From the NCBI GenBank assembly GCA_035559535.1, contig DATMBG010000033.1:61573-125572 (forward strand): 64,000 nt of DNA, read 5' to 3'. The position numbers were made by a program, and so were the translations under genes. The notes beneath the pieces are model-generated. The model had not been told where the DNA came from, ran no database searches, and was given only the letters and a program-made list of their open reading frames with translations. Of this stretch, positions 19,630 through 37,139 are shown piece after piece; the first letter of the stretch is position 1, and every line of letters begins with the position of its first letter. The stretch is from Candidatus Limnocylindrales bacterium (GTDB taxonomy: Bacteria; Moduliflexota; Moduliflexia; Moduliflexales; JAUQPW01).

Positions 19630-20100
19630 TTATTGGGATAACCTCTTCAACCAATAAGATACCCTGGGGTCTTTTCCGCCTAATCGAAGATAAATATCAT
19701 AGTGATTTTTGGCCAGCGTTGCATTCTTAAGATTTTTATCGTATAAAACTCCTAGTTTATAGTGAGCTTCCATAAGATTCGGATCAATTTGAATGGCCTT
19801 TTCATAATTTTCTGCAGCAAGTTGATAATTACCTTGATGCACCTCTAAATCACCCAAACGCAAATAAGCGGTGGCATTCTTAGGATCTATCTGGATCGCC
19901 TCCAGGTAGTAAGTTCGGGCTTGATCTTTATCCGTTATGTAGAGTAGATCTCCTTGCTTAACCAGATCTCGAGATTTATCTCCATTGGCCGGAAGGATCC
20001 TGATTTCTGAAGTAGAGGAGCCAGGTGGTTCCAGCTTGCGTTTGACCTTGATTTTGTCTTCCCCGGTAATAACAATTTCCGGAAGCTTCAAACCCGGAGG
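19630..20100 (-). CDS. TPR-repeat protein
   Basis: Three or more TPR units ('AYLRLGDLEVHQGNYQLAAENYEKAIQIDPN', 'AHYKLGVLYDKNLKNATLAKNHYDIYLRL'). The track ORF runs to 20310 but its N-terminal part would translate through two REP-like palindromes, so the start is uncertain and 20100 is approximate. Confidence 0.5.
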   Translation of the reverse strand, partial: PPGLKLPEIVITGEDKIKVKRKLEPPGSSTSEIRILPANGDKSRDLVKQGDLLYITDKDQARTYYLEAIQIDPKNATAYLRLGDLEVHQGNYQLAAENYEKAIQIDPNLMEAHYKLGVLYDKNLKNATLAKNHYDIYLRLGGKDPRVSYWLKRLSQ

Positions 20101-20126
20101 TGCAGCAGGCTCAGCGGCAGAACTAA

Positions 20127-20154
20127 GTACGGGCACACGGCCGTGTGCCCCTAC
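20127..20154. repeat. 28-bp REP-like palindrome (GTACGGGCACACGGCCGTGTGCCCCTAC)
   Basis: Read directly; arms carry compensatory changes relative to other copies. Confidence 0.85.
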
Positions 20155-20264
20155 TCCAAGAAAAGAAAGCAAAATTAAAATAAAGGCGACAATCTGGCTT
20201 GATTGAAGGAACTTAAAGCCAGCCCTCCAATCGACGTAAGGTTTATTTTCAGAGATTAATCTTG

Positions 20265-20292
20265 GTACGGGCACACGGCCGTGTGCCCGTAC
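20265..20292. repeat. 28-bp REP-like palindrome (GTACGGGCACACGGCCGTGTGCCCGTAC)
   Basis: Read directly; 15 bp 3' of the stop of the 20307-22154 (-) gene. Confidence 0.85.
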
Positions 20293-20306
20293 TTGTTTTA
20301 GTCCGT

Positions 20307-22154
20307 TCATTTACTCCTCCATACCTCAAAGATCCTCTCCAGACCAGCCCCTCCAAACAGAGTATTTGAGATGGTTAAGGTAGTCCCTCTGGGATCTTTG
20401 AGGGTATATTCATCGTAGAAACGACCTTTTTTAACAGAAATTTCAGTATCCGGACCAAATTCGAGGGAATGCCTGTAAGTAACTCCCTGAAGTTGAGCAG
20501 TAGCAACGGCCAGCAGCCGTCGGGTTGTTACAACAATCCAGAAATAGGCATCCCGTGCACGGGTTTTATCTACATTCCTGAACCGAAACCGGGTAGAAGT
20601 TTCCCGGATGGCCAGAATCCCCTCCGTTGGATCTAATTCCCTAAAAATATATCGGAGAATTTCAAAGGGAGGGGTCGAGATCAGATCGTGCTTGGGAAGT
20701 TTGGCTTTCAATTTATCGATTAGGTGCTTTTCTCCTTCTTTTTTCATACCCAGAAGGTCGCAAAGATTATAATAATAAGCCTCATCTTCCTTTGTAAAGG
20801 GTATCTGCCAAAGTAAAACATCCAGTACTTCCAGGAGGGCCTGCTGTTTAAAGATGGGTACATCTAAAACTTTAACCAATTCCTTGAGGTCTGTGGGACG
20901 TTCCCGCTCGACCAAAATATCTGCAAACTCTGCTTCTGAGAAAGGGACCAAAGGATATGCCAAAGCCCGAGCCCAGATATACTCCTTTAAAGATTCTGAC
21001 CATTTGTTACACGCTGTGGCTGCCTGAACCATCAGTTTCAAGATGGCAGCTTCCCGTTTCTTGTTAATTTGCTGAACACTTACCACATCCAACTCTCCAG
21101 AGGGCAACGCTTTTTTCTCTAATTCATTTCGATATTTTGAAGAAACGCCCAACCGTTCTTCCAGATTACGCAGCCGCTCCATTTTTTTTGTAAGATTCAT
21201 CTCATCGGCTTGCGCAACTTTCTCTACCTGTCTGAGGAGTCGGGCTTTATCTCCTTTCTCAGAAACAACGGTTAAATCATAAGAGGCCGGCTTCTTAGCC
21301 AACAGGGAACGTAAAAGGCTTACTTTTAGTGAATCGTTCAATTCGGTATTCTTTAGAATGTAGGCCAAGAGGGTCTCGTACTCCTGGGAAGTCACCAAAC
21401 CATCCGCTACCGCCATGTTAATCATTTCACCTGCAATGCTATACTCGATGATAGCAGACTTAGGTTTTACCCCCCTTCGACTATAAAGCAGGATGGCTTC
21501 TTCCCCTACAACGGTCATGATCATGGATAAAAAATAACGAACAATGCTTTCCTGACTAACCGTGATAAGGACCTGTCGTCCCCAGTACCAAGGATTAGAA
21601 TAGTTGTAGGCGGCCCATAGGGCCTTCCCAATATCATAAAGATATTTATGCTTTTTGAAAAATTTAAAAGCGCTATGGCTGGTAACTTGATTGTAAAAGT
21701 TTTTATATTTGAGAATATTCTCGATATTGAAATCTTTGATTTTATTAAACGGAAAGGTCTCCAGATTCGCCCGAATACGTTCGCTGATCCGATAATTAAG
21801 TTCTGCAAGATCATGAAGAGAAGCTTGAAACTCGGGTCGATCTTTCAGGGGATAATAGAGCCTGGCAATCTCTCGAACAAGTTCATAGGCAAGTTGATAA
21901 ATCATGCGTGGATTAATGTCCGTACTCACAACCACATTCCACCAAATCTTGCTTCGATACTCTTTAATTAACTCATAAGCCTTGAGATCGGTCTCGGTTG
22001 GATTATCTACTTGGATGATAGGTACTTCTTGAAGTTCTTCTACATCTTTCTTTACCTCTTCAATAATCTGTTTTTTTTGCTTTTCGCGTACAAAGAGTAA
22101 AACGAACACAAGAAGGCTTAATAAGCTTATGAGAAAAATGGTTACCCAATCCAT
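20307..22154 (-). CDS. Hypothetical membrane-anchored protein (single N-terminal TM, large soluble domain)
   Basis: 615 aa, ATG start, N-terminal TM 'IFLISLLSLLVFVLLF'. No recognised motif. Immediately downstream of the large GT-C/TPR gene on the same strand. Confidence 0.55.
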   Translation of the reverse strand: MDWVTIFLISLLSLLVFVLLFVREKQKKQIIEEVKKDVEELQEVPIIQVDNPTETDLKAYELIKEYRSKIWWNVVVSTDINPRMIYQLAYELVREIARLYYPLKDRPEFQASLHDLAELNYRISERIRANLETFPFNKIKDFNIENILKYKNFYNQVTSHSAFKFFKKHKYLYDIGKALWAAYNYSNPWYWGRQVLITVSQESIVRYFLSMIMTVVGEEAILLYSRRGVKPKSAIIEYSIAGEMINMAVADGLVTSQEYETLLAYILKNTELNDSLKVSLLRSLLAKKPASYDLTVVSEKGDKARLLRQVEKVAQADEMNLTKKMERLRNLEERLGVSSKYRNELEKKALPSGELDVVSVQQINKKREAAILKLMVQAATACNKWSESLKEYIWARALAYPLVPFSEAEFADILVERERPTDLKELVKVLDVPIFKQQALLEVLDVLLWQIPFTKEDEAYYYNLCDLLGMKKEGEKHLIDKLKAKLPKHDLISTPPFEILRYIFRELDPTEGILAIRETSTRFRFRNVDKTRARDAYFWIVVTTRRLLAVATAQLQGVTYRHSLEFGPDTEISVKKGRFYDEYTLKDPRGTTLTISNTLFGGAGLERIFEVWRSK

Positions 22155-22163
22155 TCCTGGGAG

Positions 22164-22225
22164 CCAGGAGTCCGGGGTCAGGGGTCAGAAACCAGAAGCT
22201 CTGGCCTCTGACCCCGGACTCCTGG
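22164..22225 (-). promoter_or_regulatory. Long GC-rich stem-loop (18-bp perfect arms) between two co-directional genes, abutting the downstream start codon
   Basis: Arms CCAGGAGTCCGGGGTCAG (22164-22181) and CTGACCCCGGACTCCTGG (22208-22225). Lies after the stop of the 22241-25735 gene and ends 9 nt before the ATG at 22154. Confidence 0.4.
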
Positions 22226-22240
22226 CTTCTGACTGAGGAC

Positions 22241-25200
22241 TCATTTCTGTATTTCTATTTCTCCAATTTTCATCTTCTCTTGACCTCCAGCTTTGAGTCT
22301 TCGGCCGGTATTTTTAGGATCCCACACACCTATCCAGATTTCATAAGTTCCAGGTACCAGATAAGGAGGAATCTGAACCTGATACCGTTCTTTGACCACT
22401 TCTCCAGGAAGCCAGGTATCCGTGGGGTGTAAGTTTTGAAGAGGGAAGTGATCCTGCTGGAAGAAGTCTACAAGGGATATTCCCAGCTTTTGTTTAACTT
22501 TACGGATCAGATCAGAAGAAATGAACTTCTTCTTTGAAAAGTGAACAAAAATCGCATAATTCTTATCCATTTTAGCCAAGGCCTTCCAGTAATAGGTAAT
22601 GGGAAAGGTCTCGGAAGGTCTAAATTGGTTCTTAGGTAAGTCATATCCTATAAAAGCCAGTTGATTATCAAAATTGATCTGAACAGGGATCTGAGGTTGA
22701 AGTAATTCCCGGATCTGGATGAAATATTTATAAAGAGGAACCTCTTGTGGGATAGGCTCATGTTTTACTTCCTCATAAAGAGAAGAAAGCGACAGTGTAG
22801 ATTCAAAATCTTCTCCTACTCTGCCGGAATCCTGTAAAGATAGAATTTCTCGCCCGACTTCATGTTGTAAAACCTTTAGAGCTTCTTCCCATTCTTTTAA
22901 TTTAACCCAACCTAAGATCATATAATAAGAGAGATGGGGGTAAGTGGGATCTAATGCAAATAAAGGTGAAAGTTGGGTCAGGGCCTGCTCCCAGTTCCCC
23001 TCCTTTGCATAAGAAACTCCCATCAGGTAAGGGATTTGAAAGGGAAGTAAGGGATAAACATCAATTTTATCTACCAGAAGGGTTCCTATGCCCGATGTTT
23101 CTACTCGAAATTCCAAAGAAGAGGTCTCTGGGTTTACGAAACTGAGACTAAAGTTTTGATAGGTATCGGAAGCGGTAAAATCCTCTCTAAGCAGGGAGCG
23201 CCGCCCCAGGATTCCATATCGGCCACTTCGAACATCTAACATGGCAAGTAAAGGGGTTGCCGGAACTGCTTCTGAAGGGGGTAGATGATCTTTGATCTTG
23301 AGTCTATATCTAACCTGATAGGCTCCGGCCGGAAAATCTTGAAAAGGTCCATACGTTAAAAAACCTTTACCCGTAGAGATGGTTGAAGTTTTTAAAATCT
23401 CAAAGGATTGGATATCGGACTGGCTGTTTGGAACATCTGAAGTAGTTAGAATCGCGGAGTTTATCGATTCCCCCGAGATGGGAGTATCCGGTCTGGATGA
23501 AACCGCTCGACCACCGGAAGCTTCTGAATCCAGAACCACCCCTCCGGTAGTCCTTCGGAGATTCTCGGCTTCAAAACTCTGAATTAATAAACTCTGAAGA
23601 AACTTTAGCGAGGAATCGGAGGTAAGAGCGGCGCCATCTACTTCTTCTCCTCCACTTTTCCCTATAGACCTGTTAAAGTTTGCTACGTAAGTTGGAATGA
23701 GTTTCTTTGCTTTTTCCAGTACGATCCGGGACCTGGTAAACCGGCCTACCTGTTGATAGGCCTCACTAAGGGCGATATACAGAGCTAAATTTTCCGGTTC
23801 CTGCTCCACAGCCTGTTCCAGATAGAAAAGAGCTTTGTCGGTATTTCCGTTTTTTTGATAAGCCAGGCCTATTTTACCTGGATTCAAAGAAATCTGGACC
23901 AGACATCCCAAATAGCGGGTATCATCCTTGACCTTATCCAGCGAAAACAGGTAAGGAAGTCTTTCGGTAGGATTTGCATAGGCGAATCGAGGGATAAAAC
24001 CCGAGTAAGAGGTTATGTTAATGGGATAAAGATAGGCCTTGAAAAACGGAAAAGCTGTTTTTAACGGGAAAATAATCTCTTTCCTTTCATCCCCCTCTAA
24101 GTGGAAAGTACGCCGTACACCGGCTACTTCCAGGTCAACCGTATTTTGAAAAGGTCCATTCTCCAGGATAACCAGCAAATCGTCTTGCTTTTCATTCACC
24201 TTTAACACCGCTTCCAGCTTTGCTTCACCACGTACCCAGAAATTTTTACTGCTACGCCCCATATAGTTATCGTTCAGAAGATAAAGATCATAGGAAGGGC
24301 TATCCCCGGAGAAGTTTTGAATCATATGACGATTGGTATTGATGGGGAGAGAATTAATTTCTGTCAACTCTACAGGGAGTATTCGATAAGGGAATCGGAA
24401 GGCATGTTGCGCAGGATTATTGGAACTATAAAAGGGATTAATGAGAATTTGAGCTAAAAATAAAAAACCCACCAGCCAGGTTATCAAGATGGTTCCAAAC
24501 CCCCCTGGAATTTGGGTTGTCAAAAAGAGAAAAGCCGGATAGATATTTAAGAAAAATCGATTTCCGATCGCTCCACTCCCTCCATGATAGTTAGAGGGGG
24601 CCCACAGGATGTAGATGAGAATGTGGATAACGATGGTTCCAAGCAGGACAAATCGCAAAGAGGAACGCGGGTTTAATAGAAAACAGAAAAGCGCAACTAA
24701 AGCCGGAAAATAGTAAGGGAAAATCCCGGTGAACCGTCCAAATAGATAATAAAATAAATTATATAAAAAGACTTTAGGATTAAAATAAAAGGATTCTTCA
24801 AAATAAACATCATGGGTTTGTTTAGTCCCTAGATTATCAAATCCAGCTCCGGCTGACTCCAGGGGGAAATGCCAGTAAAAAGTTTTACGATCTCCGGCAT
24901 AGGCATTCCATTGACTCATGAACAGAAATTGAATCCCCGAAAGAATTCCCAGAATCAGTAGAAAAACAAGACCAACGCTTAAAACATATTTGTACCGCTG
25001 CCAAAAATAGTGGATTCTGGCTACAAATCCCTTCTTGGAAGTCAGATAAATTTCGCTTCGCGGTAAGATAACACTGGTTAAGAGGGGTAAAATAAAGATT
25101 CCATTGTGGGGTTTGGAAAAAGTTGCAAGACCTATCAAAAGAGCACTCAAGTATTTTCTACCTGGAGTTTTTCCAAAGGCCTGACCATAGTTTGCTAGAG

Positions 25201-25735
25201 GGGTTTCGTAGAATAGTACAAAGAGTCCGGAGGTTATCAAGAACATTTGAAAGATTTCGGGAGTGGACCAAAAGGTATAAATAAAGCCGGCAGTTACCAG
25301 GAAAAAGGTCAGGGAGAAGAGAAGCGCCAGTTGTTCTGAGTTATATTTTTTTAAATAAAGATATCCCAGCGTAATCATGGAAACCAGCAGGAGGGTATTA
25401 AAAATTAAAAATCCTCTTAATCCAAACAAATAGACAAAGGGAGCTAAAAAAAGCGGATAAATAAAAGGTTTCCCATAATATATTTTCTCTTCTCCATTTT
25501 GAACTACCCGGGTTAGAAAAACTCCCTGGGGACCTCCATGCCAGTCCTTGTAAAACCGAATCAGATCCCCCTGTGTATACTCCAGATCGCGATCAAAAGC
25601 TAAACTTTGGGCCATTATATAATAAACGGCCTCATCCCCAAACAGGTAAGTTACTACACTTTGGTACTTAATAGATAAAGACACTGCCAGTAAAAAGATG
25701 AGTAATCCTATGAGTAGTAGCTGATTAAATTTCAA
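22241..25735 (-). CDS. Large GT-C-type membrane glycosyltransferase (ArnT/PMT-like) fused to TPR repeats and a C-terminal soluble domain
   Basis: 1164 aa. N-terminal region has 10 or more TM helices with first-loop acidic motif 'GDEAVYYIMAQSL'. Central TPR units ('ALFYLEQAVEQEPENLALYIALSEAYQQVGRF', 'WEQALTQLSPLFALDPTYP'). TTG start in track. Confidence 0.6.
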   Translation of the reverse strand: MKFNQLLLIGLLIFLLAVSLSIKYQSVVTYLFGDEAVYYIMAQSLAFDRDLEYTQGDLIRFYKDWHGGPQGVFLTRVVQNGEEKIYYGKPFIYPLFLAPFVYLFGLRGFLIFNTLLLVSMITLGYLYLKKYNSEQLALLFSLTFFLVTAGFIYTFWSTPEIFQMFLITSGLFVLFYETPLANYGQAFGKTPGRKYLSALLIGLATFSKPHNGIFILPLLTSVILPRSEIYLTSKKGFVARIHYFWQRYKYVLSVGLVFLLILGILSGIQFLFMSQWNAYAGDRKTFYWHFPLESAGAGFDNLGTKQTHDVYFEESFYFNPKVFLYNLFYYLFGRFTGIFPYYFPALVALFCFLLNPRSSLRFVLLGTIVIHILIYILWAPSNYHGGSGAIGNRFFLNIYPAFLFLTTQIPGGFGTILITWLVGFLFLAQILINPFYSSNNPAQHAFRFPYRILPVELTEINSLPINTNRHMIQNFSGDSPSYDLYLLNDNYMGRSSKNFWVRGEAKLEAVLKVNEKQDDLLVILENGPFQNTVDLEVAGVRRTFHLEGDERKEIIFPLKTAFPFFKAYLYPINITSYSGFIPRFAYANPTERLPYLFSLDKVKDDTRYLGCLVQISLNPGKIGLAYQKNGNTDKALFYLEQAVEQEPENLALYIALSEAYQQVGRFTRSRIVLEKAKKLIPTYVANFNRSIGKSGGEEVDGAALTSDSSLKFLQSLLIQSFEAENLRRTTGGVVLDSEASGGRAVSSRPDTPISGESINSAILTTSDVPNSQSDIQSFEILKTSTISTGKGFLTYGPFQDFPAGAYQVRYRLKIKDHLPPSEAVPATPLLAMLDVRSGRYGILGRRSLLREDFTASDTYQNFSLSFVNPETSSLEFRVETSGIGTLLVDKIDVYPLLPFQIPYLMGVSYAKEGNWEQALTQLSPLFALDPTYPHLSYYMILGWVKLKEWEEALKVLQHEVGREILSLQDSGRVGEDFESTLSLSSLYEEVKHEPIPQEVPLYKYFIQIRELLQPQIPVQINFDNQLAFIGYDLPKNQFRPSETFPITYYWKALAKMDKNYAIFVHFSKKKFISSDLIRKVKQKLGISLVDFFQQDHFPLQNLHPTDTWLPGEVVKERYQVQIPPYLVPGTYEIWIGVWDPKNTGRRLKAGGQEKMKIGEIEIQK

Positions 25736-26388
25736 GATCCTCTCCCAGAGGCCAGGTGATAGGTACTGAACCGTAAATAATGTAAAGACTTACACCTTCC
25801 TCCTTCTAACTTAACCATCCCCATTTCCCTTCAAGACCTTAGGGTTTATCCTCTTTAACCTGCTATTTACGATTCATATTCTACTTAACATAATATCTTA
25901 GCTCAAAAATGAGCGTCAAGAAAAAAGGGAACCTTATCGATTCACCAGATGGGTAATTCCCTTCCTTGTCTTCAGAATTTCCTTTAACTTTTAAGGACAG
26001 AGTCGGATTTTTTACAATTCCCGAATTTCTCAAAACCCTTTGTAAGTATAAAGGTTATCGCCTTATACCCATTCGCTAAAATTGCGGTCTTAAGGGATCC
26101 GTACACGGGTTATCGGATCATCCTGGGGTGGGCATCAATTTGTGAAAATTCTCCCTTTTAAATTTTCTTCTTGACTTCTCCTTTTATTCGCCTATCTTAT
26201 AAATTAAGTTCTTCGATTGTTTTCAAACCCCTCGTTCATAGGACGCAGGGTGAACTTAAGGTTTGACCCTTCCTGGAGACTTCCTACAGGAAGTATTTCA
26301 GATAAAGCCTGAGCAGAGTAATCCGTTAAACTGAAAACCCTGGATTGAGCGGGCCAAGTTTTGCCTTGGCCTCAGGAGGTAGAAGGAT

Positions 26389-26820: not shown

Positions 26821-26995
26821 GGATTTTTCATGGAAGAGTCCCAAGACCCAGATTGTCCTTCCTTCAGGGGAGAGGGTAACCCCGGGGATCCAGAAAGTTT
26901 AGTATGGCCCTCTTTGTCTAAACTCTCCGTTGTAGGGCAAAACGCTATTTCGTCCAACAATGGCGAAATAGTATTTGCCTTACAACCGGGGATTT

Positions 26996-28114
26996 TTACA
27001 AATAATCTTCAAGGACCCCGCACAACTGTTCAATAGAAGCCCGACGTGCATTATAACCCATCAAGCCGATCCTCCAGATCTTTGACTTCAACTCTCCAAA
27101 GCCGGCTCCAATTTCAATTTGATGCTTTTTAAGCAGATCCGCGCGAACACTCAAAGGATCGATATGTTGAGGGGGCATCACTGAAGTGAGCATCGGAAGC
27201 CGATATCCCTCTTGAGCAAATAACGTACATCCCATCTTCTGCAGTCTTAATTTTAGCAAATCTCCGGCCTCTTGATGCCGTTTAAACCGCTGTTCCAACC
27301 CTTCTTCCATGATGATTCTCAAAGCTTCACGCAGTCCATAAATATAGGTCGTGGGGAGAGTATGATGATAAATTCGCTTTTCCCCCCAATAATCGATGAG
27401 TAAATCGATACTTAAATAGAAACTGCTGACGGGGGTTTTGCGACGCCTGATGACTTCCAAGGCCTTGGCACTGAAAGTTATGGGGGCCAGACCCGAAACC
27501 ATTCCAATACATTTTTGTGAACAGCTAAAGGCAACGTCAATATGATGATGATCGACCCTCACCGGAAGTCCCCCTAGAGAAGTCACGCAGTCCACCACGA
27601 AAAGGGTATCTGTTTTGGCAACAGCAGTCCCTATCTCTTCCAGAGGTTGTTGAACTCCGGTTGAAGTCTCTGCATGGACAATGGCAACGGCCTTTGCCTC
27701 CGGATGTTGATGGAGAGTTTCGATAACCTGTTGGGGGTCCACGATTTTCCCAACCTCTCCACGTACTTCTATCACTTTAGCTCCCAGGCGCTCGGCAACC
27801 TGTTTGATCCGTTCCCCAAAATATCCTTTGATTCCTACAATAAGGGTGTCACCTGGCTCCAGAATGTTAACCAGACAGGCTTCCATTCCTGCACTCCCTG
27901 TTCCGGAAATAGGGAATGTTATGGGATTTTTAGTTTCAAAAACAACCCGAAGCATCTCCTGGATTTCATCCATGATTGGAAATAAATCGGGGTCGGCATA
28001 ACCAATGACCGGAGCACAAATAGCTTGAAAAATGCGCGGATGAATATTTGCCGGACCCGGGCCGAGTAGAAGCCGGGGGGATGGAAGAAACTCAGAATAA
28101 AGGTTCTCTTTCAC
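26996..28114 (-). CDS. Class V pyridoxal-phosphate aminotransferase (alanine-glyoxylate / serine-pyruvate aminotransferase-like)
   Basis: 372 aa. GTG start preceded by AAGGAGGAG. 'GPGPANIHPRI', 'ISGTGSAGMEA', and a PLP-lysine region 'FSCSQKCIG'. Confidence 0.8.
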   Translation of the reverse strand: MKENLYSEFLPSPRLLLGPGPANIHPRIFQAICAPVIGYADPDLFPIMDEIQEMLRVVFETKNPITFPISGTGSAGMEACLVNILEPGDTLIVGIKGYFGERIKQVAERLGAKVIEVRGEVGKIVDPQQVIETLHQHPEAKAVAIVHAETSTGVQQPLEEIGTAVAKTDTLFVVDCVTSLGGLPVRVDHHHIDVAFSCSQKCIGMVSGLAPITFSAKALEVIRRRKTPVSSFYLSIDLLIDYWGEKRIYHHTLPTTYIYGLREALRIIMEEGLEQRFKRHQEAGDLLKLRLQKMGCTLFAQEGYRLPMLTSVMPPQHIDPLSVRADLLKKHQIEIGAGFGELKSKIWRIGLMGYNARRASIEQLCGVLEDYL

Positions 28115-28311: not shown

Positions 28312-29319
28312 TTATCCGTTGGATGGTAAAGGTTCCAGGGTAAAGGTGGCTCGTTCCATAACGGTCCCGTTGTAGAGGTAGTGAACCGTCCAGACCCCAA
28401 ATTTTCTGGCAGCCGGATATCCGGCTATGGTGGTGTAACAATACCAATAGCTATAAGCATAAGACCGATCGTGATTAATTCTACAACTTGAATAGAGTTC
28501 CCCCTTAGGGGTATACCATCTCCACTCTGAAACATCTCCTGCTTGTACGTTTAAAACCCTTACCCAAAAGGTTACATAGGAGTCTGTTGCATAAAACTTG
28601 TTCCCTGAGGGTGGGATAGAACCATTCTGGGGGATTTGATTGGTAAGCACGGTTTTCACCACTTTAAAAGCCCCACCTTGATAAGGTTCCTGATTTTCCC
28701 AGTAACTCACAGACCTGTTGGAGCTACAGGGACCTGCATAGGGATTAATGAGATTAATGGCAGAATCCGTTACAATAAAATGGAGATGGGGTGTATCGGA
28801 ATCTCCAGAACTCCCGACCTCTCCTATTTTCTGTCCTTTCTTAACACGATCACCTGTTTTGACTAAAATAGAACCTTTTTTCATATGATGATATACAGTC
28901 CGAAGACCATTGGCATGGTGAATAAATACATGGTTGGAGTTTTCATAGGGACAGTTACGCTGACAATGATCGTAATATCCATCGACCGCCTCGGTTACAA
29001 CTCCGGAGTCGGCGGCTAGGACATCAACACCTCGATCCATGGCTTCCCATCCCTCGATGACAAAATCTGTCCCATTGTGCCCATCATACGTCATGGAACC
29101 ACAGTTCCAATCTTTGACACTTCCCGGCGCCGGATCGTCATCCATATAATTCGTTATGAAACAGGTTTTCCCTAATTCACAGTTCAGAGGAAAGATAAAC
29201 TGACCGGCACTCCAGGCCGGGGAAGGAAAGAAAGAAAGATTCTGTATCTCCCCAAAAAGAACCGTTATCCCCATAACACTTACGACAAAAAAACATCTTA
29301 AAAACCGATATATTCTCAT
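28312..29319 (-). CDS. Secreted M23-family metallopeptidase
   Basis: ATG at 29319 preceded by GGAGGG. Signal peptide. M23 motifs 'HNGTDF' and 'GSSGDSDTPHLHF'. Confidence 0.75.
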   Translation of the reverse strand: MRIYRFLRCFFVVSVMGITVLFGEIQNLSFFPSPAWSAGQFIFPLNCELGKTCFITNYMDDDPAPGSVKDWNCGSMTYDGHNGTDFVIEGWEAMDRGVDVLAADSGVVTEAVDGYYDHCQRNCPYENSNHVFIHHANGLRTVYHHMKKGSILVKTGDRVKKGQKIGEVGSSGDSDTPHLHFIVTDSAINLINPYAGPCSSNRSVSYWENQEPYQGGAFKVVKTVLTNQIPQNGSIPPSGNKFYATDSYVTFWVRVLNVQAGDVSEWRWYTPKGELYSSCRINHDRSYAYSYWYCYTTIAGYPAARKFGVWTVHYLYNGTVMERATFTLEPLPSNG

Positions 29320-29538
29320 CTTCAACCCTCCGATTTTTACCCACCGTTTCTAACCCATACCATTGCTTCTTTAACTTCTCGATTTTTGCTTCCCATTTTT
29401 ATTCAATTTTGATGCCCCTATAGAACCTTTAGAGGATTTTACCGATCCGAACTGTCTTAATTGAAGGAATGAGGGACTGTCAAGGGAAAAGTCATGGTTT
29501 TTTTTCTCGGTAAAGGGGGAATTGTATCGGAGGAGGTA

Positions 29539-29615
29539 GGGGAGGGAACTTCGCTTTAAAGTTCCTTCCCCTGCAAAGAGGGGAAAGGTTAGTAGGTTAG
29601 ACGTCTCGTTTGACA
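29539..29615 (-). promoter_or_regulatory. Cluster of overlapping stem-loops plus a conserved 15-mer in the leader region upstream of the M23 peptidase gene
   Basis: Hairpin GGGGAGGGAACTT/AAGTTCCTTCCCC (29539-29571) overlaps an alternative hairpin TCCCCT/AGGGGA (29567-29582). Followed by ACGTCTCGTTTGACA (29601-29615), which also occurs at 6524-6538. Confidence 0.35.
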
Positions 29616-29736
29616 TTAAGGGGGCCCTCTCAGGGATCTCACTCTTATCCTGGTGCATATGGGGACCGGGGGTGAAGGGAGAGAGGCCAGGAGTGAGGGC
29701 CGCTCAAACGTTAAACAAAACTAAGTAAACAATGTA

Positions 29737-30054
29737 CTATTCTAAATCTTTAGGTTCCGATTTGTGGCCCTTTACAATAATTGGAGTTTTCAAGGCGGGA
29801 AATGAACGATCTAATTCATTCAATTCTTTCTGGAGTTTCTCAATCTCTTCATTAAGATAAATAATCCGGTTGATATATTCCTTAACAGAGGGATGTAGAA
29901 GGGGATTTTCGAAGGTTTTTTTGAGAAGATTATAATAAAGTTGACCGAGTTTAATAAAAATTTTCTCTTTTTTACGCCCTACATTTGCTAACTTCTGACG
30001 ATACCAGACAATTTGGATAGCTTTATAGATACTCTCTTTAAGTTTCACAATCAA
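29737..30054 (-). CDS. Hypothetical protein (coiled-coil-like)
   Basis: 105-aa ORF 6 bp downstream of the MBL-fold gene on the same strand; no motif recognised. Confidence 0.4.
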   Translation of the reverse strand: MIVKLKESIYKAIQIVWYRQKLANVGRKKEKIFIKLGQLYYNLLKKTFENPLLHPSVKEYINRIIYLNEEIEKLQKELNELDRSFPALKTPIIVKGHKSEPKDLE

Positions 30055-30060
30055 CTAAAG

Positions 30061-30972
30061 CTATAGGATGATCTCCAGACCTTCATAAGCTATGCGAGAA
30101 TTTGGAAAATGGAGTTGAACTTGTTTTTCCATCTCAGAAAGGAAACTATCGGAGTGGGAAGGGTCGTGATGAAACAAAATATACTGTTTGACTCCTGCAG
30201 CTTTAGAGAGTAAGACTCCCTCTCGCCATGTGCTGTGGCCCCATCCAATTTTTGAGCGTTTTTGATTGGCCGGATCACCCAGATACTCTTCGGGAGTATA
30301 TTGAGAATCGTAAATAAAGATATCTGCATTCTTAGCGAGGGCTAAAACATGGGGGTCGAGATCTCCTCCGTAATAATGTTCTGTATCCGTTGCATAAACA
30401 ACCACCTTATCTCCTTTAGCATTTTCGATTCTATAACCCAAAGCTCCATTAGGATGATTAAGCCTTCCAGGAATGATACGATTCTCTCCGATTTTTATGG
30501 GATTATCTTGAATTTCATGGAAATTGACCGTAGCACCCATCTGATCTAAAGATACGGGAAAGTATTGATATTCCATCTGTCCTCTAAGGGTATTTTCTAA
30601 TTTCTCAAAAACCCTTTTGGCTCCGTAAAGGTTAAACGTATTGCTCAGTTCAGGTTCTTCCTCATCTCCAGATGATTTTAAGGCAGGGAAATGAGACTTC
30701 CCCTTCACAAAGGCAGGAGCAAAGAAAGGAAATCCCTGGATATGATCCCAGTGGGTATGACTAAAAAAGATATGACCGACCTTGCCACCTTTGTCAAAAC
30801 CTTCCTCCATTAAACTAAGCCCCAGCAACCGAATGCCTGTCCCAGCATCAAAGATAAGAAGTTGGTTATCATCGGTCCTCACTTCCACACAGGACGTATT
30901 TCCACCCACTTTAACCGTCTGAGGACCTGGGGTGGGAATTGAACCCCGGACCCCCCAGAATTTCACTTTCAT
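30061..30972 (-). CDS. MBL-fold metallo-hydrolase
   Basis: Metallo-beta-lactamase motif 'HFFSHTHWDHIQG' and N-terminal 'WGVRGSIPTPG'. Confidence 0.7.
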   Translation of the reverse strand: MKVKFWGVRGSIPTPGPQTVKVGGNTSCVEVRTDDNQLLIFDAGTGIRLLGLSLMEEGFDKGGKVGHIFFSHTHWDHIQGFPFFAPAFVKGKSHFPALKSSGDEEEPELSNTFNLYGAKRVFEKLENTLRGQMEYQYFPVSLDQMGATVNFHEIQDNPIKIGENRIIPGRLNHPNGALGYRIENAKGDKVVVYATDTEHYYGGDLDPHVLALAKNADIFIYDSQYTPEEYLGDPANQKRSKIGWGHSTWREGVLLSKAAGVKQYILFHHDPSHSDSFLSEMEKQVQLHFPNSRIAYEGLEIIL

Positions 30973-31216
30973 TGCTCTACCCTCTCTCGAAACACAAATA
31001 CTTTCAACCTGAATTCTAAAAAGAATCTTCCCTTTTTAAAGAAATTCTCTGCCTTACTTGCAGGCAATCTTTATACCACTTAAAAGGATACCTTTAAGCT
31101 CCCCCCCTGAAGATTTTTAAATCTTCTCCCGCGAGATCTGTTAAATCTTACCAGGTTAAATTTTTACATCCAAATTTTATTTCAATTAATTTATATTTTA
31201 TTTTAACTTATAAGGA

Positions 31217-31513
31217 TTATACGCGAGGTAGTTTAGAACGTTCATCTGAAATGTCATCGGGAAAATAAATTTTGATCTGCTCTTGATCTGATCCCTCTTT
31301 CTCAACGCGAAGATCTAGTCGATGTCCACAGGGTAAGATAAATATGTACCTTTTATCCACCCCCCCATCTTCGTATTGTCTCCCGATCGAAACCTTTTCT
31401 GGAGAAATACTGTCCGGGCTCTCGTAGGGTGGATCACCGAAACTGACTCTAAAGCGTTGATTACAAACTCCACACCTTCCCAGATAAATACGTTCTTTAA
31501 TGGGTTCGTTCAT
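31217..31513 (-). CDS. Hypothetical small Cys/His-containing protein
   Basis: 98 aa, ATG preceded by AGGAG; 'CGVCNQ...CGH' suggests a metal-binding knuckle. Confidence 0.4.
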   Translation of the reverse strand: MNEPIKERIYLGRCGVCNQRFRVSFGDPPYESPDSISPEKVSIGRQYEDGGVDKRYIFILPCGHRLDLRVEKEGSDQEQIKIYFPDDISDERSKLPRV

Positions 31514-31735
31514 CTCTAGATCTCCTGCTTGTCGGCCATTTTAGGACTTCCCTTATGGGATATTGAATTCCCCCTTCCCTCCTAACATGGTCTGAAGAAT
31601 AAACCTCCTGTAAAATAACTGTAAAATAAACCTTTTTAATTGTCAACCCTATTTTAGTAACTTGCCTTCCAAACCAAAAAATCTTGGCCTTTCCCTTGAC
31701 AATCCCTTACATAAAAGGTAAAACTTACAGCATAC

Positions 31736-34330
31736 ATGAAAAGGAAAGTTTATGCTTTACAGGTCAGTAAAATGTTAACCTCCCTTTTTTGGGTTCTAAC
31801 AGCCGGAGCCTCCATAGGATTTTATGTCTGGATGCGGGTTAATCCGCTTGTTTTTCTAGATCAAGGAAACCTCCAGACCTATTTATATTTCAACTTCTTC
31901 CATCTTAAACTTCTCTGGTATTTAGCAGGGTGCATGTCAGGGTTAACCGTTTTTTGGCTCTTATATGCCCGGACTCTGAACCTGGCAACCGGTATAGATT
32001 TCCCCATCTGTCTGTATGCAGACGCCAAAACTTACCTGCCTTGCTATTTACTTCTTCTGAACTGGCTTAGCTTCCGCTACGTCCTTTATAAACCCGGTTA
32101 CCTTCTTCCCACCATCATTCTTATTTTTATCTTAATCCGCAAATATCGATTCTTAAGGATGATCCTCGCTCCTTTAACTTTATTTCGCTTATTCCCTGTT
32201 TCCAGGTCTCCACACTTCCGCCGGGGGATTATACCTGTTCTTATTTTTATCCTTTCTACCGGATTTTACCTGAGCCTGTCCACAAAACTTCTCTCGCCCC
32301 TCCATGTTCTGGTTGGAGATGAGCCCTCATATCTTATGATTACCGACAGCCTTTCCAAAGATGGAGATGTAAGGTTAAACAATAATTATCGAGAAAAGGC
32401 CTATTTACGTTTTTTTCCAGGTGAATATCCTCGATTTGGTAACATCGGTAAAGATGGTGGGATCTATCCTAGACACGGCATCGGACTTCCCCTTCTGCTC
32501 GTTCCGTTTTATCGCTTAGGAGATCGATTCGATCATATGGTTTTTTTTCCCAGAGCCTGTATGAATTTACTCACGGCTCTCCTGGTTACAAATTTTTATT
32601 TGCTGGCCTATGAGATGACCCGGAATCTTCCGGCTTCCTTGCTAACCACCTTTATTTTTGGGTTTACCACGCCGGTCCTTTTTTACTCTTACCAGATCTA
32701 TCCGGAAGTCCCTGCCGGATTGATTTTGTTATATGCTTTCCGAAAATGGCGCTTGTTTTATAGAAGACCCTTGCTATACCCGCTTTGCATAGGCGGGGCC
32801 ATTTCTCTTCTACCCTGGTTTGGAGTGAAGTACCTTATTTTATCCCTGGTACTGTTTCTTTTAGCCGGGTTCAGTTTGATACGATATCGGACTCATTTTT
32901 CTTATTTATCTGTTCTCCTTTTTTTATTTCCTATTATCCTGTCGGGGGTACTTCATGCCTGGTTTACCTATTCCATGTACAAAACCATATCTCCAACCGC
33001 CATGTATGGACAGGCCTCTCCGATTCCAGGACAAAAGCCGGGGTCTTATTCAGTCCTGGGGGATTTAAAATTTAAATTAAAACGAGGTCTTATGGGAATT
33101 CCTGGGGTTTTCCTGGATCAAAGGATCGGTCTTCTTTTTCATAGCCCCCTTTACTTCTTTTCGCTGGCCGGTATTCTAGCCCTATGGAGAAAGAAAGCCT
33201 ATCGACCTCAGATGTTCGCTTTACTTTTTATCTTTCTGAGCTACATCTTTTTTTATACCTCCCAACCGACAGCAGGATGGGGCGGATACAGTGTCATGAA
33301 TCGCCCGGTCATAGCCGTTATCTGGTGTTTAGGTATTTTGATGCTCTTTGGTTTGAAATCCTTCCGGGGGCCCCTGGCAACAGCCCTTCGAAACGGTTTC
33401 TTCGTTTTTAGTTTTCTTTTGGTTGGCCTCTATTTAAAAGAGCCTTTACTGCTTTATCACCAGATGGCTTATCGTTATCAAGAACTTCGAAGTAACCTCC
33501 TCTATACCTATAGTAGTGCCTTTCTAGATCTGACTTCCCTGTTTCCTGCCATGATGGGTACAGATAAAAATCCTAAAGTAACCCTCTTCTGGGCAGGTGT
33601 TACGCTAACTTTGCTGGCACTTTGTTACTATGAATCGAAAAAAAGAGTATGGGAGTATGGGAGTGTGGGAGTGTGGGAGTATGGAGGCAGGGAGGTAGGG
33701 AGGTATGGAAGTATAAGAAATAGAACTCCCATACCCCCATACCCCCATACCCCCATCCTCCTACTCTTGCCCATAGTGTTAGGCTTTCTTTTCCTGATGG
33801 GAGGTTGGATTTCAGTTAAGGAGATTCTCCCCAAGACGCAAAATGCTACCGGCTATGAAATGTTTTTCACTTTACCCTGGACGGGAAAGGGTCTGATAGG
33901 TAAATATTATGATAATGAAGCCTGGGAAGGAGTTCCTCGGGTTATTCGACGAGACCCCTCACTCGACTTTTCTTTTATACAACATCTGGATATGTTCCGG
34001 GTCAAGGTAGGAAATTTTCCTCTCCCGGTGAATCTTTCTTCCTTTTCTGTGGACTGGTCTGGATATCTGATAGTCCCTTCGTCAGGAAATTATATCTTCC
34101 AGGTAATCACTTCCCCACGGGCTTTCTTTTATCTGTCTATAGATGGGGATCCCATGGTTGTAGATGGGAAAACTCCCAGGGAATTGACCCAGGGGGATCA
34201 CTCCATTCGGATTCGGTTGAAGGAACTACATCCTTCCAATTCCCAACTCATCCTGTATTGGATACGACCCGACGGTCAAAAAGAAATTATTCCGGCGGAA
34301 GCTTTCCGGCCTTATCAAGGAATAAACTAA
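31736..34330 (+). CDS. GT-C-type membrane glycosyltransferase (ArnT/PMT-like) with C-terminal PA14 domain
   Basis: 864 aa, ATG start. Many TM helices with first-loop motif 'GDEPSYLMITDSL' paralogous to the 1164-aa protein. C-terminal PA14-like region 'GKYYDNEAWEGVP...VDWSGYLIVPSSGNYIFQVITSPRAFFYLSIDGDPMVVDG'. Contains the repeat at 33645-33760. Confidence 0.6.
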   Translation: MKRKVYALQVSKMLTSLFWVLTAGASIGFYVWMRVNPLVFLDQGNLQTYLYFNFFHLKLLWYLAGCMSGLTVFWLLYARTLNLATGIDFPICLYADAKTYLPCYLLLLNWLSFRYVLYKPGYLLPTIILIFILIRKYRFLRMILAPLTLFRLFPVSRSPHFRRGIIPVLIFILSTGFYLSLSTKLLSPLHVLVGDEPSYLMITDSLSKDGDVRLNNNYREKAYLRFFPGEYPRFGNIGKDGGIYPRHGIGLPLLLVPFYRLGDRFDHMVFFPRACMNLLTALLVTNFYLLAYEMTRNLPASLLTTFIFGFTTPVLFYSYQIYPEVPAGLILLYAFRKWRLFYRRPLLYPLCIGGAISLLPWFGVKYLILSLVLFLLAGFSLIRYRTHFSYLSVLLFLFPIILSGVLHAWFTYSMYKTISPTAMYGQASPIPGQKPGSYSVLGDLKFKLKRGLMGIPGVFLDQRIGLLFHSPLYFFSLAGILALWRKKAYRPQMFALLFIFLSYIFFYTSQPTAGWGGYSVMNRPVIAVIWCLGILMLFGLKSFRGPLATALRNGFFVFSFLLVGLYLKEPLLLYHQMAYRYQELRSNLLYTYSSAFLDLTSLFPAMMGTDKNPKVTLFWAGVTLTLLALCYYESKKRVWEYGSVGVWEYGGREVGRYGSIRNRTPIPPYPHTPILLLLPIVLGFLFLMGGWISVKEILPKTQNATGYEMFFTLPWTGKGLIGKYYDNEAWEGVPRVIRRDPSLDFSFIQHLDMFRVKVGNFPLPVNLSSFSVDWSGYLIVPSSGNYIFQVITSPRAFFYLSIDGDPMVVDGKTPRELTQGDHSIRIRLKELHPSNSQLILYWIRPDGQKEIIPAEAFRPYQGIN
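33645..33760 (+). repeat. Imperfect octamer tandem repeat (about 9 x AGTRTGGG-like) followed by inverted CCCATACC units, inside the CDS
   Basis: gagtatgggagtatgggagtgtgggagtgtgggagtatggaggcagggaggtagggaggtatgg ... cccatacccccatacccccatacccccatcc read directly; translated in frame as VWEYGSVGVWEYGGREVGRYGS...PIPPYPHTP. Confidence 0.7.
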
Positions 34331-35514
34331 GAAAAGAAATTCTGGCGCTTCTTCAAATTATCCAGGGTCTTGATGATAAAGCTCATCATGACGAGCTGGA
34401 CTCCCGTCAGGAATAGAGTAGCTCCGGTGAGGATATAGGACCAGTGAACATGAATATGCTGGGTAGTTACATACTCATAAATGGTATTTTTATTCAAAAC
34501 GATACTACTTAAAATGGAAAGCCAGCCGATCAGACCTATTTTTTTCATGATCGTTGGTTTAAAAATATATCGGCTCCAGAAACTACGCTGATGAATCTCT
34601 TTTCGGTGCATGATGGACAAAATATAGTTCGAAAAGGCTCCAAAGGTCATGGTGTTGATACCTGTTATAAACAGAACCATAATGGTAAAGAGCCGATAAA
34701 TTTCCCAATCCTCTACTTCCCGCAATTTGATATAGTAAGTCACCGGCATAATTCCCAACAATACCCCTATGAAAATCATCAGTAATCCCATCATTCCGTA
34801 AAACTTGAGCGGGTTATAAAGGTTGGCGGTATGGAGGATGGTTGAGAGGAATCGGAGTCCATCTTGGATAACATGAAGTTTAGATTTTCCTATCCGTTCC
34901 TTGTATTCAATAGGAACTTCTACGACTTTCATTCCTTCATGCAAGGCATGGGTACTCATGGCAGGAGTTAAATCGAGCCCATCGGGTAAAGGATATAATC
35001 GGGTTAAAATAGATCGTTTGAAGACCCGCATCCCACTGGCTGAGTCTGTTATTTTATGCTCGACGATCCAGCTCAAAAGTCTGGCAAAAAACCTGTTACC
35101 GATCTGTCGAATGAAAGGCATACCGGTTTTCTTTTCAATCATTCGGGAGCCGATGACCATATCGGCGTTTGTTTCTCTTAAGACCCTGCAAAGGTCTAAG
35201 AAGGCCCGGGCGGGGTAAGTCCCATCGGCATCCAGGAATCCCATATACTCCCCTCGTGCTTTATCAAACCCAGTTTTCAGAGCAGATCCGTATCCTAAAT
35301 TTTTCCTATGATGGATAAGGACCACATCTGGATAACCCTGAACAATTTCACCTGTTCGATCCTGGGAGCCGTCGTTTACAATGATAATTTCTACCTCGGA
35401 GATGCCAATTTTTGTCTCTAGAATTTCCTTTTTAACCGCCAGAACTTCCAGAATCGTGGCTCCTATAGAATTTTCTTCATTATACGCTGGAATCACTATA
35501 GAAAGTGTGGGCAT
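34327..35514 (-). CDS. GT2-family polyprenyl-phosphate glycosyltransferase (DPM1/ArnC-like) with C-terminal TM helices
   Basis: ATG at 35514 preceded by GGGAGGAGG. 'LSIVIPAYNEE', 'VNDGSQDRT', 'FLDADGTYP' GT-A motifs. About 100-aa hydrophobic C-terminal segment. Confidence 0.8.
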   Translation of the reverse strand: MPTLSIVIPAYNEENSIGATILEVLAVKKEILETKIGISEVEIIIVNDGSQDRTGEIVQGYPDVVLIHHRKNLGYGSALKTGFDKARGEYMGFLDADGTYPARAFLDLCRVLRETNADMVIGSRMIEKKTGMPFIRQIGNRFFARLLSWIVEHKITDSASGMRVFKRSILTRLYPLPDGLDLTPAMSTHALHEGMKVVEVPIEYKERIGKSKLHVIQDGLRFLSTILHTANLYNPLKFYGMMGLLMIFIGVLLGIMPVTYYIKLREVEDWEIYRLFTIMVLFITGINTMTFGAFSNYILSIMHRKEIHQRSFWSRYIFKPTIMKKIGLIGWLSILSSIVLNKNTIYEYVTTQHIHVHWSYILTGATLFLTGVQLVMMSFIIKTLDNLKKRQNFFS

Positions 35515-35767
35515 ACGCTTCCCCTCCTCCCTTCTGCTTACCCATGAATCAAAAGTTTCTGTTTCTTTTGTGCAGTTTTTATACCAGCTTTGATAGGGAA
35601 TGCCCAAATTCGATTGCCCAAATTTTTAGTATTGTTTCCTTTATAAGTTCAACTAAGCTTAACAATTTTTATTGACATCTTTCTCATCCAGTGTAAAAAA
35701 TTAAAGTATAAATGTAAAACATTAACTTTACCTAAATATAGGTTTTCGTGACTTTTAGGAAAGTCTT

Positions 35768-37047: not shown

Positions 37048-37139
37048 ATATTTTGACTCCTTTCCAGGGTGAAAGTAACCGCATAGAGCTGTTCTATGTC
37101 CTGGGTCATTAAAAATAGGACAGCTTTATGGGATGGTTT

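Follow-up and report, generated by a model that had tools for sequence, protein, structure and literature searches.

The stretch of DNA analysed here, called the window in what follows, comprises 64,000 nucleotides of contig DATMBG010000033.1 (GenBank assembly GCA_035559535.1). Its part from 19630 to 35607 encodes two large membrane proteins of 864 and 1164 amino acids (aa) with the predicted GT-C fold of membrane-embedded glycosyltransferases, a family 2 glycosyltransferase (GT2) that is a candidate for the synthesis of polyprenyl-phosphate sugars, and a number of neighbouring genes. The gene inventory is based on a listing of open reading frames (ORFs) together with Pfam and NCBIfam scans, and folds were assigned by comparing structures predicted with AlphaFold2 (AF2) with solved structures. 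An earlier reading of the same DNA, hereafter the original prediction, had described these 16 kb as one envelope-glycosylation neighbourhood; the ORF listing and Pfam scans recover every gene it had named in its place, but the interval is made of two separable modules plus unrelated genes and is not one functional neighbourhood. The proteins of the window have been deposited as HWP47636-HWP47655 on a 180-kb contig of a third-party annotation (TPA) metagenome-assembled genome (MAG) labelled Candidatus Limnocylindrales, and NCBI annotation describes the two large proteins and a third, 562-aa membrane protein encoded further upstream as 'PA14 domain-containing', 'tetratricopeptide repeat' or 'hypothetical' only. 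The central features are the following.

31736-34330, plus strand: 864-aa GT-C-fold glycosyltransferase with a C-terminal PA14 domain (HWP47655)
31736-32209, plus strand: N-terminal extension of about four hydrophobic helices, residues 1-158 of the 864-aa protein, preceding its GT-C core (from AF2 helices and hydropathy)
32315-32332, plus strand: GDEPSY motif, residues 194-199 of the 864-aa protein, at the start of the first-loop helix (juxtamembrane helix 1, JM1), with putative catalytic Asp195
34010-34300, plus strand: PA14 domain, residues 759-855 of the 864-aa protein (Pfam), presumably periplasmic
34327-35607, minus strand: 426-aa GT2, candidate polyprenyl-phosphate sugar synthase
22241-25735, minus strand: 1164-aa GT-C-fold glycosyltransferase (HWP47648), with only tetratricopeptide repeat (TPR) matches in Pfam
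25622-25639, minus strand: GDEAVY motif, residues 33-38 of the 1164-aa protein, with putative catalytic Asp34

Domain searches do not bring out the fold of these proteins. None of the three membrane proteins has a significant match to a GT-C family in Pfam or NCBIfam, none matches PMT or PMT_2 (PF02366/PF13231) at E <= 0.01, and the direct scans returned, besides a match to the N-terminal part of AftB, only a weak one to the Leptospira 'putative glycosyltransferase' LA_3751/LA_3752 (33.8 bits against a cut-off of 200). Among the relatives of the 864-aa protein, 0 of 22 match a GT-C Pfam family even at E <= 1, and PMT_2 is matched by 5 of the 48 relatives of the 1164-aa protein (best E 2e-7). 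Searched against the PDB sequences, the profile of the 864 family finds nothing and that of the 1164 family finds TPR proteins only, so that the GT-C assignment could not be had from domain searches, one of the routes by which it was to be checked. It is structure prediction that settles the GT-C fold of both proteins, at the level of models. The first 20 structural matches of the 864-aa model are all GT-C-fold proteins, as are the first 11 of the 1164-aa model (mean predicted local distance difference test score, pLDDT, 84; predicted template modelling score, pTM, 0.77), in which carbohydrate-binding modules (CBMs) appear from rank 12. The top matches of the latter are ALG12 (21.2), ArnT (18.3), PIG-M (17.9) and Pmt4 (15.9), the same GT-C enzymes as for the 864-aa model, and these best matches are enzymes that use polyprenyl-monophosphate sugars, namely dolichyl-phosphate mannose (Dol-P-Man) and undecaprenyl-phosphate aminoarabinose (Und-P-Ara4N). 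The multi-helix membrane domains of both models thus resemble those of solved GT-C enzymes, and the predicted fold of all three proteins was borne out, that of the 562-aa protein through a profile match to AftB.

The relationship between the two large proteins becomes visible at the level of profiles. In a BLASTP comparison they align in the motif region only (E 8e-4), and the description of them as paralogues would fail by this measure; comparison of the two family alignments with hhalign gives a probability of 99.8% (E 3.9e-28) over 510 columns, which cover the whole membrane core and, in most members of the 864 family, the first β-domain behind it. The match begins at residue 191 of the 864-aa protein. 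By these alignments the two enzymes are of common ancestry, and they belong to a clade of GT-C enzymes that has no representative in Pfam, in NCBIfam or among solved structures. The clade is rare: 22 cluster representatives were found for the 864 family and 83 for the 1164 family among 5.8 billion.

Both families share the motif GDE(A/P)xY, which had been noticed in the two window proteins and proves to be real and conserved in both (48 sequences for the 1164 family and 22 for the 864 family). G194, D195, E196, P197 and Y199 are at least 90% conserved in the 864 family; in the 1164 family D34 is invariant (48/48), with E35 and Y38 at least 90% conserved. The motif stands at the beginning of the first helix behind transmembrane helix 1 (TM1) in both models, and the two AF2 helices that follow TM1 span residues 196-208 and 215-225 in the 864-aa protein and 33-47 and 55-64 in the 1164-aa protein. 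In GT-C_A enzymes the catalytic Asp is situated at the tip of JM1, the first of two juxtamembrane helices between TM1 and TM2, and D62 of the DD motif of AftB is an example of an Asp that is essential at this place (PMC12041299). On their predicted structures both window proteins have two juxtamembrane helices and an Asp at the tip of the first, and Asp195 and Asp34 are the putative catalytic residues. Further motifs conserved in the 1164 family (WxxPE, SKxPN, GDRKTFY, GRFxG and GGxGAxGNRFF) lie in loops that would be periplasmic. Topology was derived by counting Lys and Arg residues by hand in the loops between predicted helices. By this count, which is consistent throughout, the N-terminus would lie in the cytoplasm (N-in) and the 1164-aa protein would have 11 core helices; the 864-aa protein would have the same 11 core helices with four extra N-terminal and two extra C-terminal ones. 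The alternation of K/R-rich loops would place all conserved motifs and both C-terminal tails in the periplasm.

The C-terminal tails set these enzymes apart from ArnT and PMT. The PA14 domain (PF07691) of the 864-aa protein scores 41.2 bits against a gathering cut-off of 24 and occurs in 5 of 22 members of the family, those nearest to the window protein. In the 1164-aa model the GT-C core (residues 1-470) is followed by a β-sandwich (472-616), a TPR block (619-690), a second β-sandwich (719-895), a second TPR block (897-1011) and a last β-sandwich (1016-1162). The PA14 domain and the TPRs of the 1164-aa protein and of the neighbouring 226-aa protein had all been predicted correctly. The accompanying view that such fusions are not classical holds in comparison with ArnT and PMT, but TPR-GT-C and PA14-GT-C fusions occur elsewhere. 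A GT-C domain combined with TPRs is the architecture of the eukaryotic TMTC1-4 (PMC7801869), TMEM260 has been reported as a protein-specific O-mannosyltransferase (PMC10214176), and PMT+TPR and PA14+PMT fusions are present in the related loci themselves (L005 and L007). Fusions of PA14 with a GT-C enzyme that has a canonical PMT domain thus exist in the same lineage, where GT-C-like genes are dense; in L007 a 987-aa PA14+PMT+PMT_2 protein (3311-6274) and a 791-aa DUF2298 protein (15595-17970) flank the pair of genes that corresponds to the 1164-aa and 615-aa proteins of the window. The accessory modules also occur in other combinations. The last β-sandwich of the 1164-aa protein (22250-22690) is a mobile module that is also C-terminal in a canonical ArnT/PMT-type protein, P0104 (hhalign 98%, E 1.4e-13), and the middle one (23051-23581) is duplicated at the ends of a 997-aa and a 1046-aa protein which adjoin a Desulfarculus member of the 864 family.

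The 426-aa GT2 consists of a GT-A catalytic domain at about residues 34-260 (Glycos_transf_2, PF00535, E 2e-33) and four C-terminal hydrophobic helices. Its best solved relatives are GtrB sll0501 (5ekp, E 4e-13), ArnC and the dolichyl-phosphate mannose (DPM) synthase of Pyrococcus (PfDPMS), and the alignment with GtrB covers residues 34-332, reaching into the TM helices. The best NCBIfam matches are AglJ (3e-43) and dolichyl-phosphate hexose transferase (2e-26), followed by PpgS, PgfS and ArnC. By sequence, then, the protein belongs to the polyprenyl-phosphate sugar synthase group, and the family proposed for it from the letters alone stands, with GtrB, ArnC and DPM synthase as nearest solved relatives.

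The GT2 gene and the 864-aa gene overlap by 4 nt and face each other. They remain neighbours in the relatives with 89, 83 and 60% identity despite an inversion and changed flanks, and a short GT2 lies within two genes of an 864-family member in four of seven lineages whose mutual identity is at most 39%: the clade of the window, L008, the P0011 contig and L012. Homology to the window GT2 was confirmed for L008 (32% identity, E 4e-28) and L012 (30%, E 1e-22), and the GT2 of the P0011 contig was accepted for its compatible length. These nearby GT2 genes are convergent, divergent or co-directional with the 864-family gene. The loci of the 864 family often hold polysaccharide genes as well (Wzx-type flippase, GT1, deacetylase, LPG_synthase_TM), and LPG_synthase_TM proteins are found in three of these loci; some distant loci have LPG_synthase_TM or Wzx-type genes instead of a GtrA, SMR or MATE flippase.

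Gene order in relatives separates the interval into two blocks. In the 83% relative (L002) the order is unk105-MBL-864-GT2-M23-aminotransferase-unk143-1164-615, where MBL stands for a metallo-β-lactamase-fold hydrolase, unk105 and unk143 for small ORFs of 105 and 143 aa, and 615 for the protein of that length; the window differs from it by a single inversion of the block from unk105 to the GT2 (29737-35607 in the window, 7855-13760 in L002). In the 89% MAG (L004), the only relative found by a single-protein genome scan, the flank beyond the GT2 differs again, which points to repeated rearrangement at the edges of this block. In the 60% relatives, MBL-864-GT2-M23 lies in the middle of one contig (L001) and is followed by Bac_transf, WecG, GDSL and lyase genes, and unk143-1164-615 lies on a different, 175-kb contig of the same metagenome (L007), beside the PA14+PMT and DUF2298 proteins. 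In Vecturithrix and Moduliflexus the homologues of the 1164-aa protein (34-36% identity) have unrelated neighbours and no GT2. Because the blocks are found on different contigs, inverted or beside unrelated neighbours, the interval is best described as two separable modules, unk143/1164/615 and unk105/MBL/864/GT2(/M23), which stand side by side only in close relatives. This is where the single neighbourhood over 16 kb of the original prediction breaks down: each module is kept in close relatives, but the two are not co-conserved in the 60% relatives, in Vecturithrix or in Moduliflexus.

Directly beyond the GT2, at 35768-40921, there are genes for unknown proteins of 156 and 270 aa, a 1006-aa FtsK/AAA-type NTPase and a further unknown of 254 aa; all four are missing from this position in all relatives. 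Over its last 300 residues the NTPase resembles PADLOC SspH (E 4.5e-68) and mad8, and this segment is probably a defence-island insertion at a rearrangement breakpoint.

The remaining genes of the interval, and two genes upstream of it that had been drawn into the same neighbourhood, are as follows.

19630-20310, minus strand: 226-aa TPR protein (TPR_11, E 1e-17)
20307-22154, minus strand: 615-aa N-terminally anchored protein with a single N-terminal hydrophobic helix
26389-26820, plus strand: 143-aa small membrane protein with a hydrophobic hairpin (unk143), divergent from the 1164-aa gene
26996-28114, minus strand: class-V aminotransferase
28312-29325, minus strand: 337-aa secreted M23 metallopeptidase (PF01551, E 8e-21)
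29737-30972, minus strand: 105-aa ORF (unk105) and RNase Z-like MBL hydrolase together
30061-30972, minus strand: 303-aa MBL-fold hydrolase, RNase Z-like (Lactamase_B_2, E 3e-17), divergent from the 864-aa gene
8473-10161, plus strand: 562-aa AftB-like GT-C glycosyltransferase, no Pfam match, outside both modules
15576-16703, plus strand: 375-aa second M23 peptidase (PF01551, E 8e-20)

The genes of the interval are distributed over both strands and form at least four transcription units, and they include some that are unrelated to glycosylation and had been passed over before, namely the class-V aminotransferase, the RNase Z-like MBL hydrolase and small ORFs; the interval is a mosaic and not an operon. 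Scans for Rfam families, tRNAs, promoters and terminators gave nothing informative. The 615-aa gene follows the 1164-aa gene in the same direction after 86 nt, and the pair is kept in the 88% and 60% relatives, this kept position being the only tie of the 615-aa protein to glycosylation. It has 129 representative relatives, most of which share its first 230-340 residues and some of which carry EcsC, TerB/DUF533 or bPH domains, and a positive cluster after its single TM helix suggests that the bulk of the protein is cytoplasmic. Unknown proteins of 647, 573 and 553 aa beside relatives were considered as homologues of the 615-aa protein and rejected, as they had no HMM matches. The 143-aa protein has no Pfam match; tblastn finds it in the same relative position at 90% identity in L002 and 70% in L007. 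For the 226-aa TPR protein, whose gene start overlaps the stop of the 615-aa gene, tblastn finds no match in any related locus, and it does not stand beside the 615 homologue in L007. Both M23 peptidases are borne out by PF01551 (74.5 and 71.3 bits), and the metal ligands (HxxxD and HxH), read in the sequence of the 337-aa protein only, are intact there as H83-NGT-D87 and H180-L-H182. The 337-aa M23 gene adjoins the GT2 in the 83% and 60% relatives, only among close relatives, and has been displaced in the window by the inversion; the 375-aa M23 was not found in any related locus fetched and has no demonstrated link to the glycosylation genes. The MBL hydrolase matches RNase Z in NCBIfam and PDB and is syntenic in close relatives, and it is probably unrelated in function to the 864-aa gene. 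It was considered as a conserved partner of both GT-C families and rejected, since the MBL protein beside the Vecturithrix homologue of the 1164-aa protein is unrelated and not orthologous. Between the MBL and 864-aa genes a 98-aa ORF (31217-31513) has a zinc-ribbon-like CxxC…CGH pattern, and L001-L003 have an ORF of 98-99 aa in the corresponding position. For four other genes that had been grouped with the GT2 no link to it was found: those of the 615-aa protein and the 226-aa TPR protein, and the upstream genes of the M23 peptidase and the AftB-like enzyme.

The 562-aa protein is nonetheless a GT-C-like enzyme, as had been supposed. Its family has 946 matches, many named 'arabinofuranosyltransferase' by JGI, and the family profile (A4) matches the mycobacterial enzyme AftB (9dlf) with E 1e-26 at profile positions 10-271. 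The DDAFISFRYA segment of the family aligns with DDGLIVLRTV in the DD region of AftB; the DD motif occupies residues 37-38 (8581-8586), and D37 and D38 are invariant in 46 sequences. Homology to AftB (family GT89), including the DD motif, is thus present, and orthology is not indicated, the score against the AftB equivalog NF041481 being 20.9 bits against a cut-off of 1050; since it falls so far below this cut-off, the protein is called AftB-like rather than AftB. UbiA-type or DprE-type genes (for decaprenyl-phospho-arabinose) were not found among the scanned ORFs of the window. Its kinship with the large enzymes is distant: BLASTP against the 864-aa and 1164-aa proteins gave nothing, as did the single sequence against the A2 profile, and only the comparison of profiles gave a weak link, with hhalign placing the 562-aa family against the 1164 family at 91% probability (E 1e-6) and GGDxMPxxRF against GGxGAxGNRFF. 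The gene sits 10 kb away among unrelated genes, with an M28 peptidase, ABC permeases, Hsp33 and a CCA-adding enzyme encoded between it and the 375-aa M23 gene.

Several repeats were observed inside these genes. At 33645-33770, in frame within the 864-aa gene, there is an imperfect palindrome of about 125 nt with octamer runs, (GGGAGTRT)n … (ATACCCCC)n, whose arms of 36 nt are 83% complementary; its translation is a disordered K/R-rich loop (…VWEYGSVGVWEYGGREVGRYGS…TPIPPYPHTP) that connects the last two helices. The 89% and 83% relatives have variants of the palindrome and the 64% and 60% relatives lack it; a hairpin-forming repeat seems to have been inserted here recently and in frame. Another low-complexity in-frame insertion, purine-rich, is found at 8825-8895 in the 562-aa gene, where it encodes GEWEGGEVGEFENRREGESEKGG in a loop. 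Two exact copies of a perfect 20-nt palindrome, GGGCACACGGCCGTGTGCCC, lie 138 nt apart at 20131-20150 and 20269-20288, just downstream of the 615-aa stop and within the first 60 codons of the 226-aa TPR ORF. Each copy encodes AHGRVPV, and chance alone would be expected to produce none. The TPR gene may start elsewhere than annotated, or the hairpins may have a regulatory function or be similar to repetitive extragenic palindromes (REP-like).

The label Candidatus Limnocylindrales (Chloroflexota) may be unreliable for this contig. The full-length homologues of the 1164-aa protein that bear an organism name belong to candidate division KSB3/Moduliflexota. In addition, a 1362-aa protein of the AsmA family, of a kind typical of outer-membrane bacteria, is encoded at 59862-63950 of the window. 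These two observations are why the label is doubted.

Fold, homology, conserved motifs, domain composition and the conservation of gene order are established by the analysis, and from them we infer the donor type, membrane topology, acceptor class and pairing of the enzymes in the following scheme, to which we give a probability of roughly 0.55: two independent modules are each built around one member of the GT-C_A clade, and in one of them a lipid-linked sugar charged by the GT2 is used by the 864-aa enzyme in the periplasm. In this second module (30.0-35.6 kb, module B) the GT2 would load undecaprenyl phosphate from a nucleotide sugar on the cytoplasmic side of the inner membrane, as GtrB, ArnC and DPM synthase do, and the lipid-linked sugar would then be flipped across the membrane, the scan of the window having found no flippase gene. 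The 864-aa enzyme would take over the flipped sugar on the periplasmic side, where Asp195, situated at the tip of JM1, would be the catalytic residue; that its donor is a polyprenyl-(pyro)phosphate-linked sugar is supported indirectly by the GtrB-like GT2 next to it. The PA14 domain of the enzyme would bind an acceptor that contains carbohydrate, and this acceptor is more probably a glycan of the envelope or outside the cell than lipid A. In the first module (19.6-26.8 kb, module A) the 1164-aa paralogue would catalyse a reaction of the same kind, for which the polyprenyl-phosphate sugar would come from outside the module, possibly from the same GT2. A polysaccharide acceptor and partner proteins would be bound by its periplasmic tail of three CBM-like β-sandwiches and two TPR blocks, and the membrane proteins of 615 and 143 aa would be lineage-specific partners. 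The AftB-like enzyme and both M23 peptidases would be separate envelope genes. The two-step logic of GT2 and GT-C enzyme that had been proposed for the whole interval is supported by gene order for the pair of GT2 and 864-aa gene, whose adjacency recurs; the 1164-aa gene has no GT2 neighbour, and no flippase was found.

The scheme recalls several known systems in part. A three-component logic is known from Gtr-type O-antigen modification, ArnC/ArnT and DPM1/PMT (PMC11127046). Like the GtrB/GtrA/Gtr* systems of the Shigella and Salmonella O-antigen and the GT136 pentofuranose systems (PMC11127046), the window has a GtrB-like GT2 with C-terminal TM helices beside a GT-C enzyme, and the predicted cytoplasmic charging of undecaprenyl phosphate would likewise be followed by periplasmic transfer to a glycan. 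Unlike in these systems, no dedicated flippase gene (GtrA, SMR or MATE) was found in the locus, the genes are convergent and do not form an operon, and the 864-aa enzyme is two to three times larger, with four extra N-terminal helices and PA14, has no sequence similarity to Gtr* or GT136 and is encoded neither in a prophage nor in an O-antigen locus. ArnC/ArnT (GT2 plus GT83) transfers L-Ara4N from its undecaprenyl-phosphate carrier to lipid A; an Arn-type locus was considered here and rejected, as the ArnA, ArnB and ArnD families were not found in the window and the aminotransferase is of class V (PhnW/serine-glyoxylate-like), not DegT/ArnB. The window proteins also miss the ArnT/PMT Pfam families and have large carbohydrate-binding and TPR tails, which ArnT lacks. 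The 562-aa protein resembles AftB, the terminal β-1,2-arabinofuranosyltransferase of GT89 (9dlf/9dlh; PMC12041299), in its profile match and aligned DD motif and differs from it in its C-terminal domain, besides its low equivalog score. The 1164-aa protein has a GT-C domain followed by TPRs, as TMTC1-4 (PMC7801869) do, and its TPRs would lie on the non-cytoplasmic side; both large proteins are like PMT in having a membrane GT-C domain followed by a carbohydrate-binding domain (MIR in PMT, PA14 or CBM here). They are bacterial proteins and differ from TMTC, TMEM260 and PMT in lacking any sequence-level membership in these families, and the TPR blocks of the 1164-aa protein are short and interleaved with three β-sandwiches.

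A number of results weigh against the scheme of two modules with a GT2-fed 864-aa enzyme. The GT2 and 864-aa genes are convergent and are therefore not co-transcribed, three of the seven 864-family lineages have no GT2 nearby, and none of the loci examined has a GT2 next to a member of the 1164 family. Every NCBIfam match of the GT2 lies below its curated equivalog cut-off, and for this reason its sugar cannot be named; GtrA, SMR, MATE, Wzx and PF03706 were not matched among the approximately 40 ORFs of the window scanned with Pfam. The topology rests on hand counting, and the PA14 part of the 864-aa model is of low confidence (pLDDT 25-73). Alternatively the neighbourhood could be coincidental, with the three GT-C genes, the GT2 and the M23 peptidases as independent envelope genes in a lineage that is rich in GT-C paralogues, the GT2 serving another pathway and the donors of the GT-C enzymes coming from elsewhere. 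The absence of a nearby GT2 from three lineages fits such a reading, as do the placement of the modules on different contigs in the 60% relatives, the distribution of the genes over both strands, the interspersed unrelated genes (aminotransferase, RNase Z-like MBL, CCA-adding enzyme, Hsp33 and ABC permeases) and the high density of GT-C-like genes, three of which (PA14-PMT, a 1212-aa protein and DUF2298) lie within 15 kb in L007. However, the adjacency of the GT2 and the 864-aa gene outlasts an inversion and the replacement of flanks, and homologous GT2s recur in distant lineages in three orientations, which is hard to explain by chance alone, and we regard coincidence as a doubtful explanation.

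The nature of the acceptor and the chemistry itself may also be questioned. The 1164-aa enzyme, and possibly the 864-aa enzyme, could be bacterial analogues of TMTC, TMEM260 and PMT whose TPRs choose periplasmic or secreted proteins as substrates, as the combination of GT-C and TPRs in the TMTC O-mannosyltransferases (PMC7801869), the likewise protein-specific TMEM260 (PMC10214176) and the strong TPR matches, TPRs being protein-binding modules, might suggest. Yet the best structural matches of the accessory domains are carbohydrate-binding modules and PA14, the related loci of the 864 family carry polysaccharide-synthesis genes and no candidate substrate protein is conserved beside either gene, so that protein acceptors appear unlikely. 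That the GT-C-fold proteins would be no transferases, acting as non-catalytic scaffolds or in other chemistry (polymerase- or ligase-like, or PIG-U-like), is highly improbable in view of the invariant first-loop Asp, of the periplasmic motifs WxxPE, SKxPN, GDRKTFY and GGxGxxGNRF, which are invariant or nearly so, and of the equivalent GG…R motif in the catalytically characterised AftB family.

A broader reading that takes the two large enzymes together is possible, and we put it forward tentatively. The 864-aa and 1164-aa proteins would found a new GT-C family at the level of CAZy, recognisable at present by its fold alone, rare and concentrated in uncultured filamentous bacteria like KSB3/Moduliflexota, in which the catalytic domain is permanently fused to carbohydrate-binding modules, either PA14 or three CBM6/35-like β-sandwiches interleaved with TPRs. 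With these modules the enzymes would dock on an exported polysaccharide, sheath or matrix polymer outside the cytoplasm and decorate it, drawing on an undecaprenyl-phosphate sugar (Und-P-sugar) made by a GtrB-like GT2 and carried across the membrane by a non-canonical flippase, for example the MprF-like LPG_synthase_TM of the distant loci.

GT-C enzymes decorate surface glycans, lipid A and proteins and thereby shape antigenicity, antibiotic resistance and the integrity of the envelope. The two-step logic of lipid carriers is textbook knowledge, and it is already known, as are fusions of GT-C domains with TPRs and with lectin-type domains; what is new is an unannotated enzyme family inside a known kind of envelope-glycosylation system. 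The result introduces no new principle; it is useful for annotation but will not surprise the specialist. It corrects the annotation of two large proteins that have so far been named by their accessory domains, adds a case in which CBM-type modules are fused to GT-C catalytic domains, and provides a small testable enzyme pair, the GT2 and the 864-aa protein, from an uncultured lineage in which a recurrent genomic partner would supply the donor.

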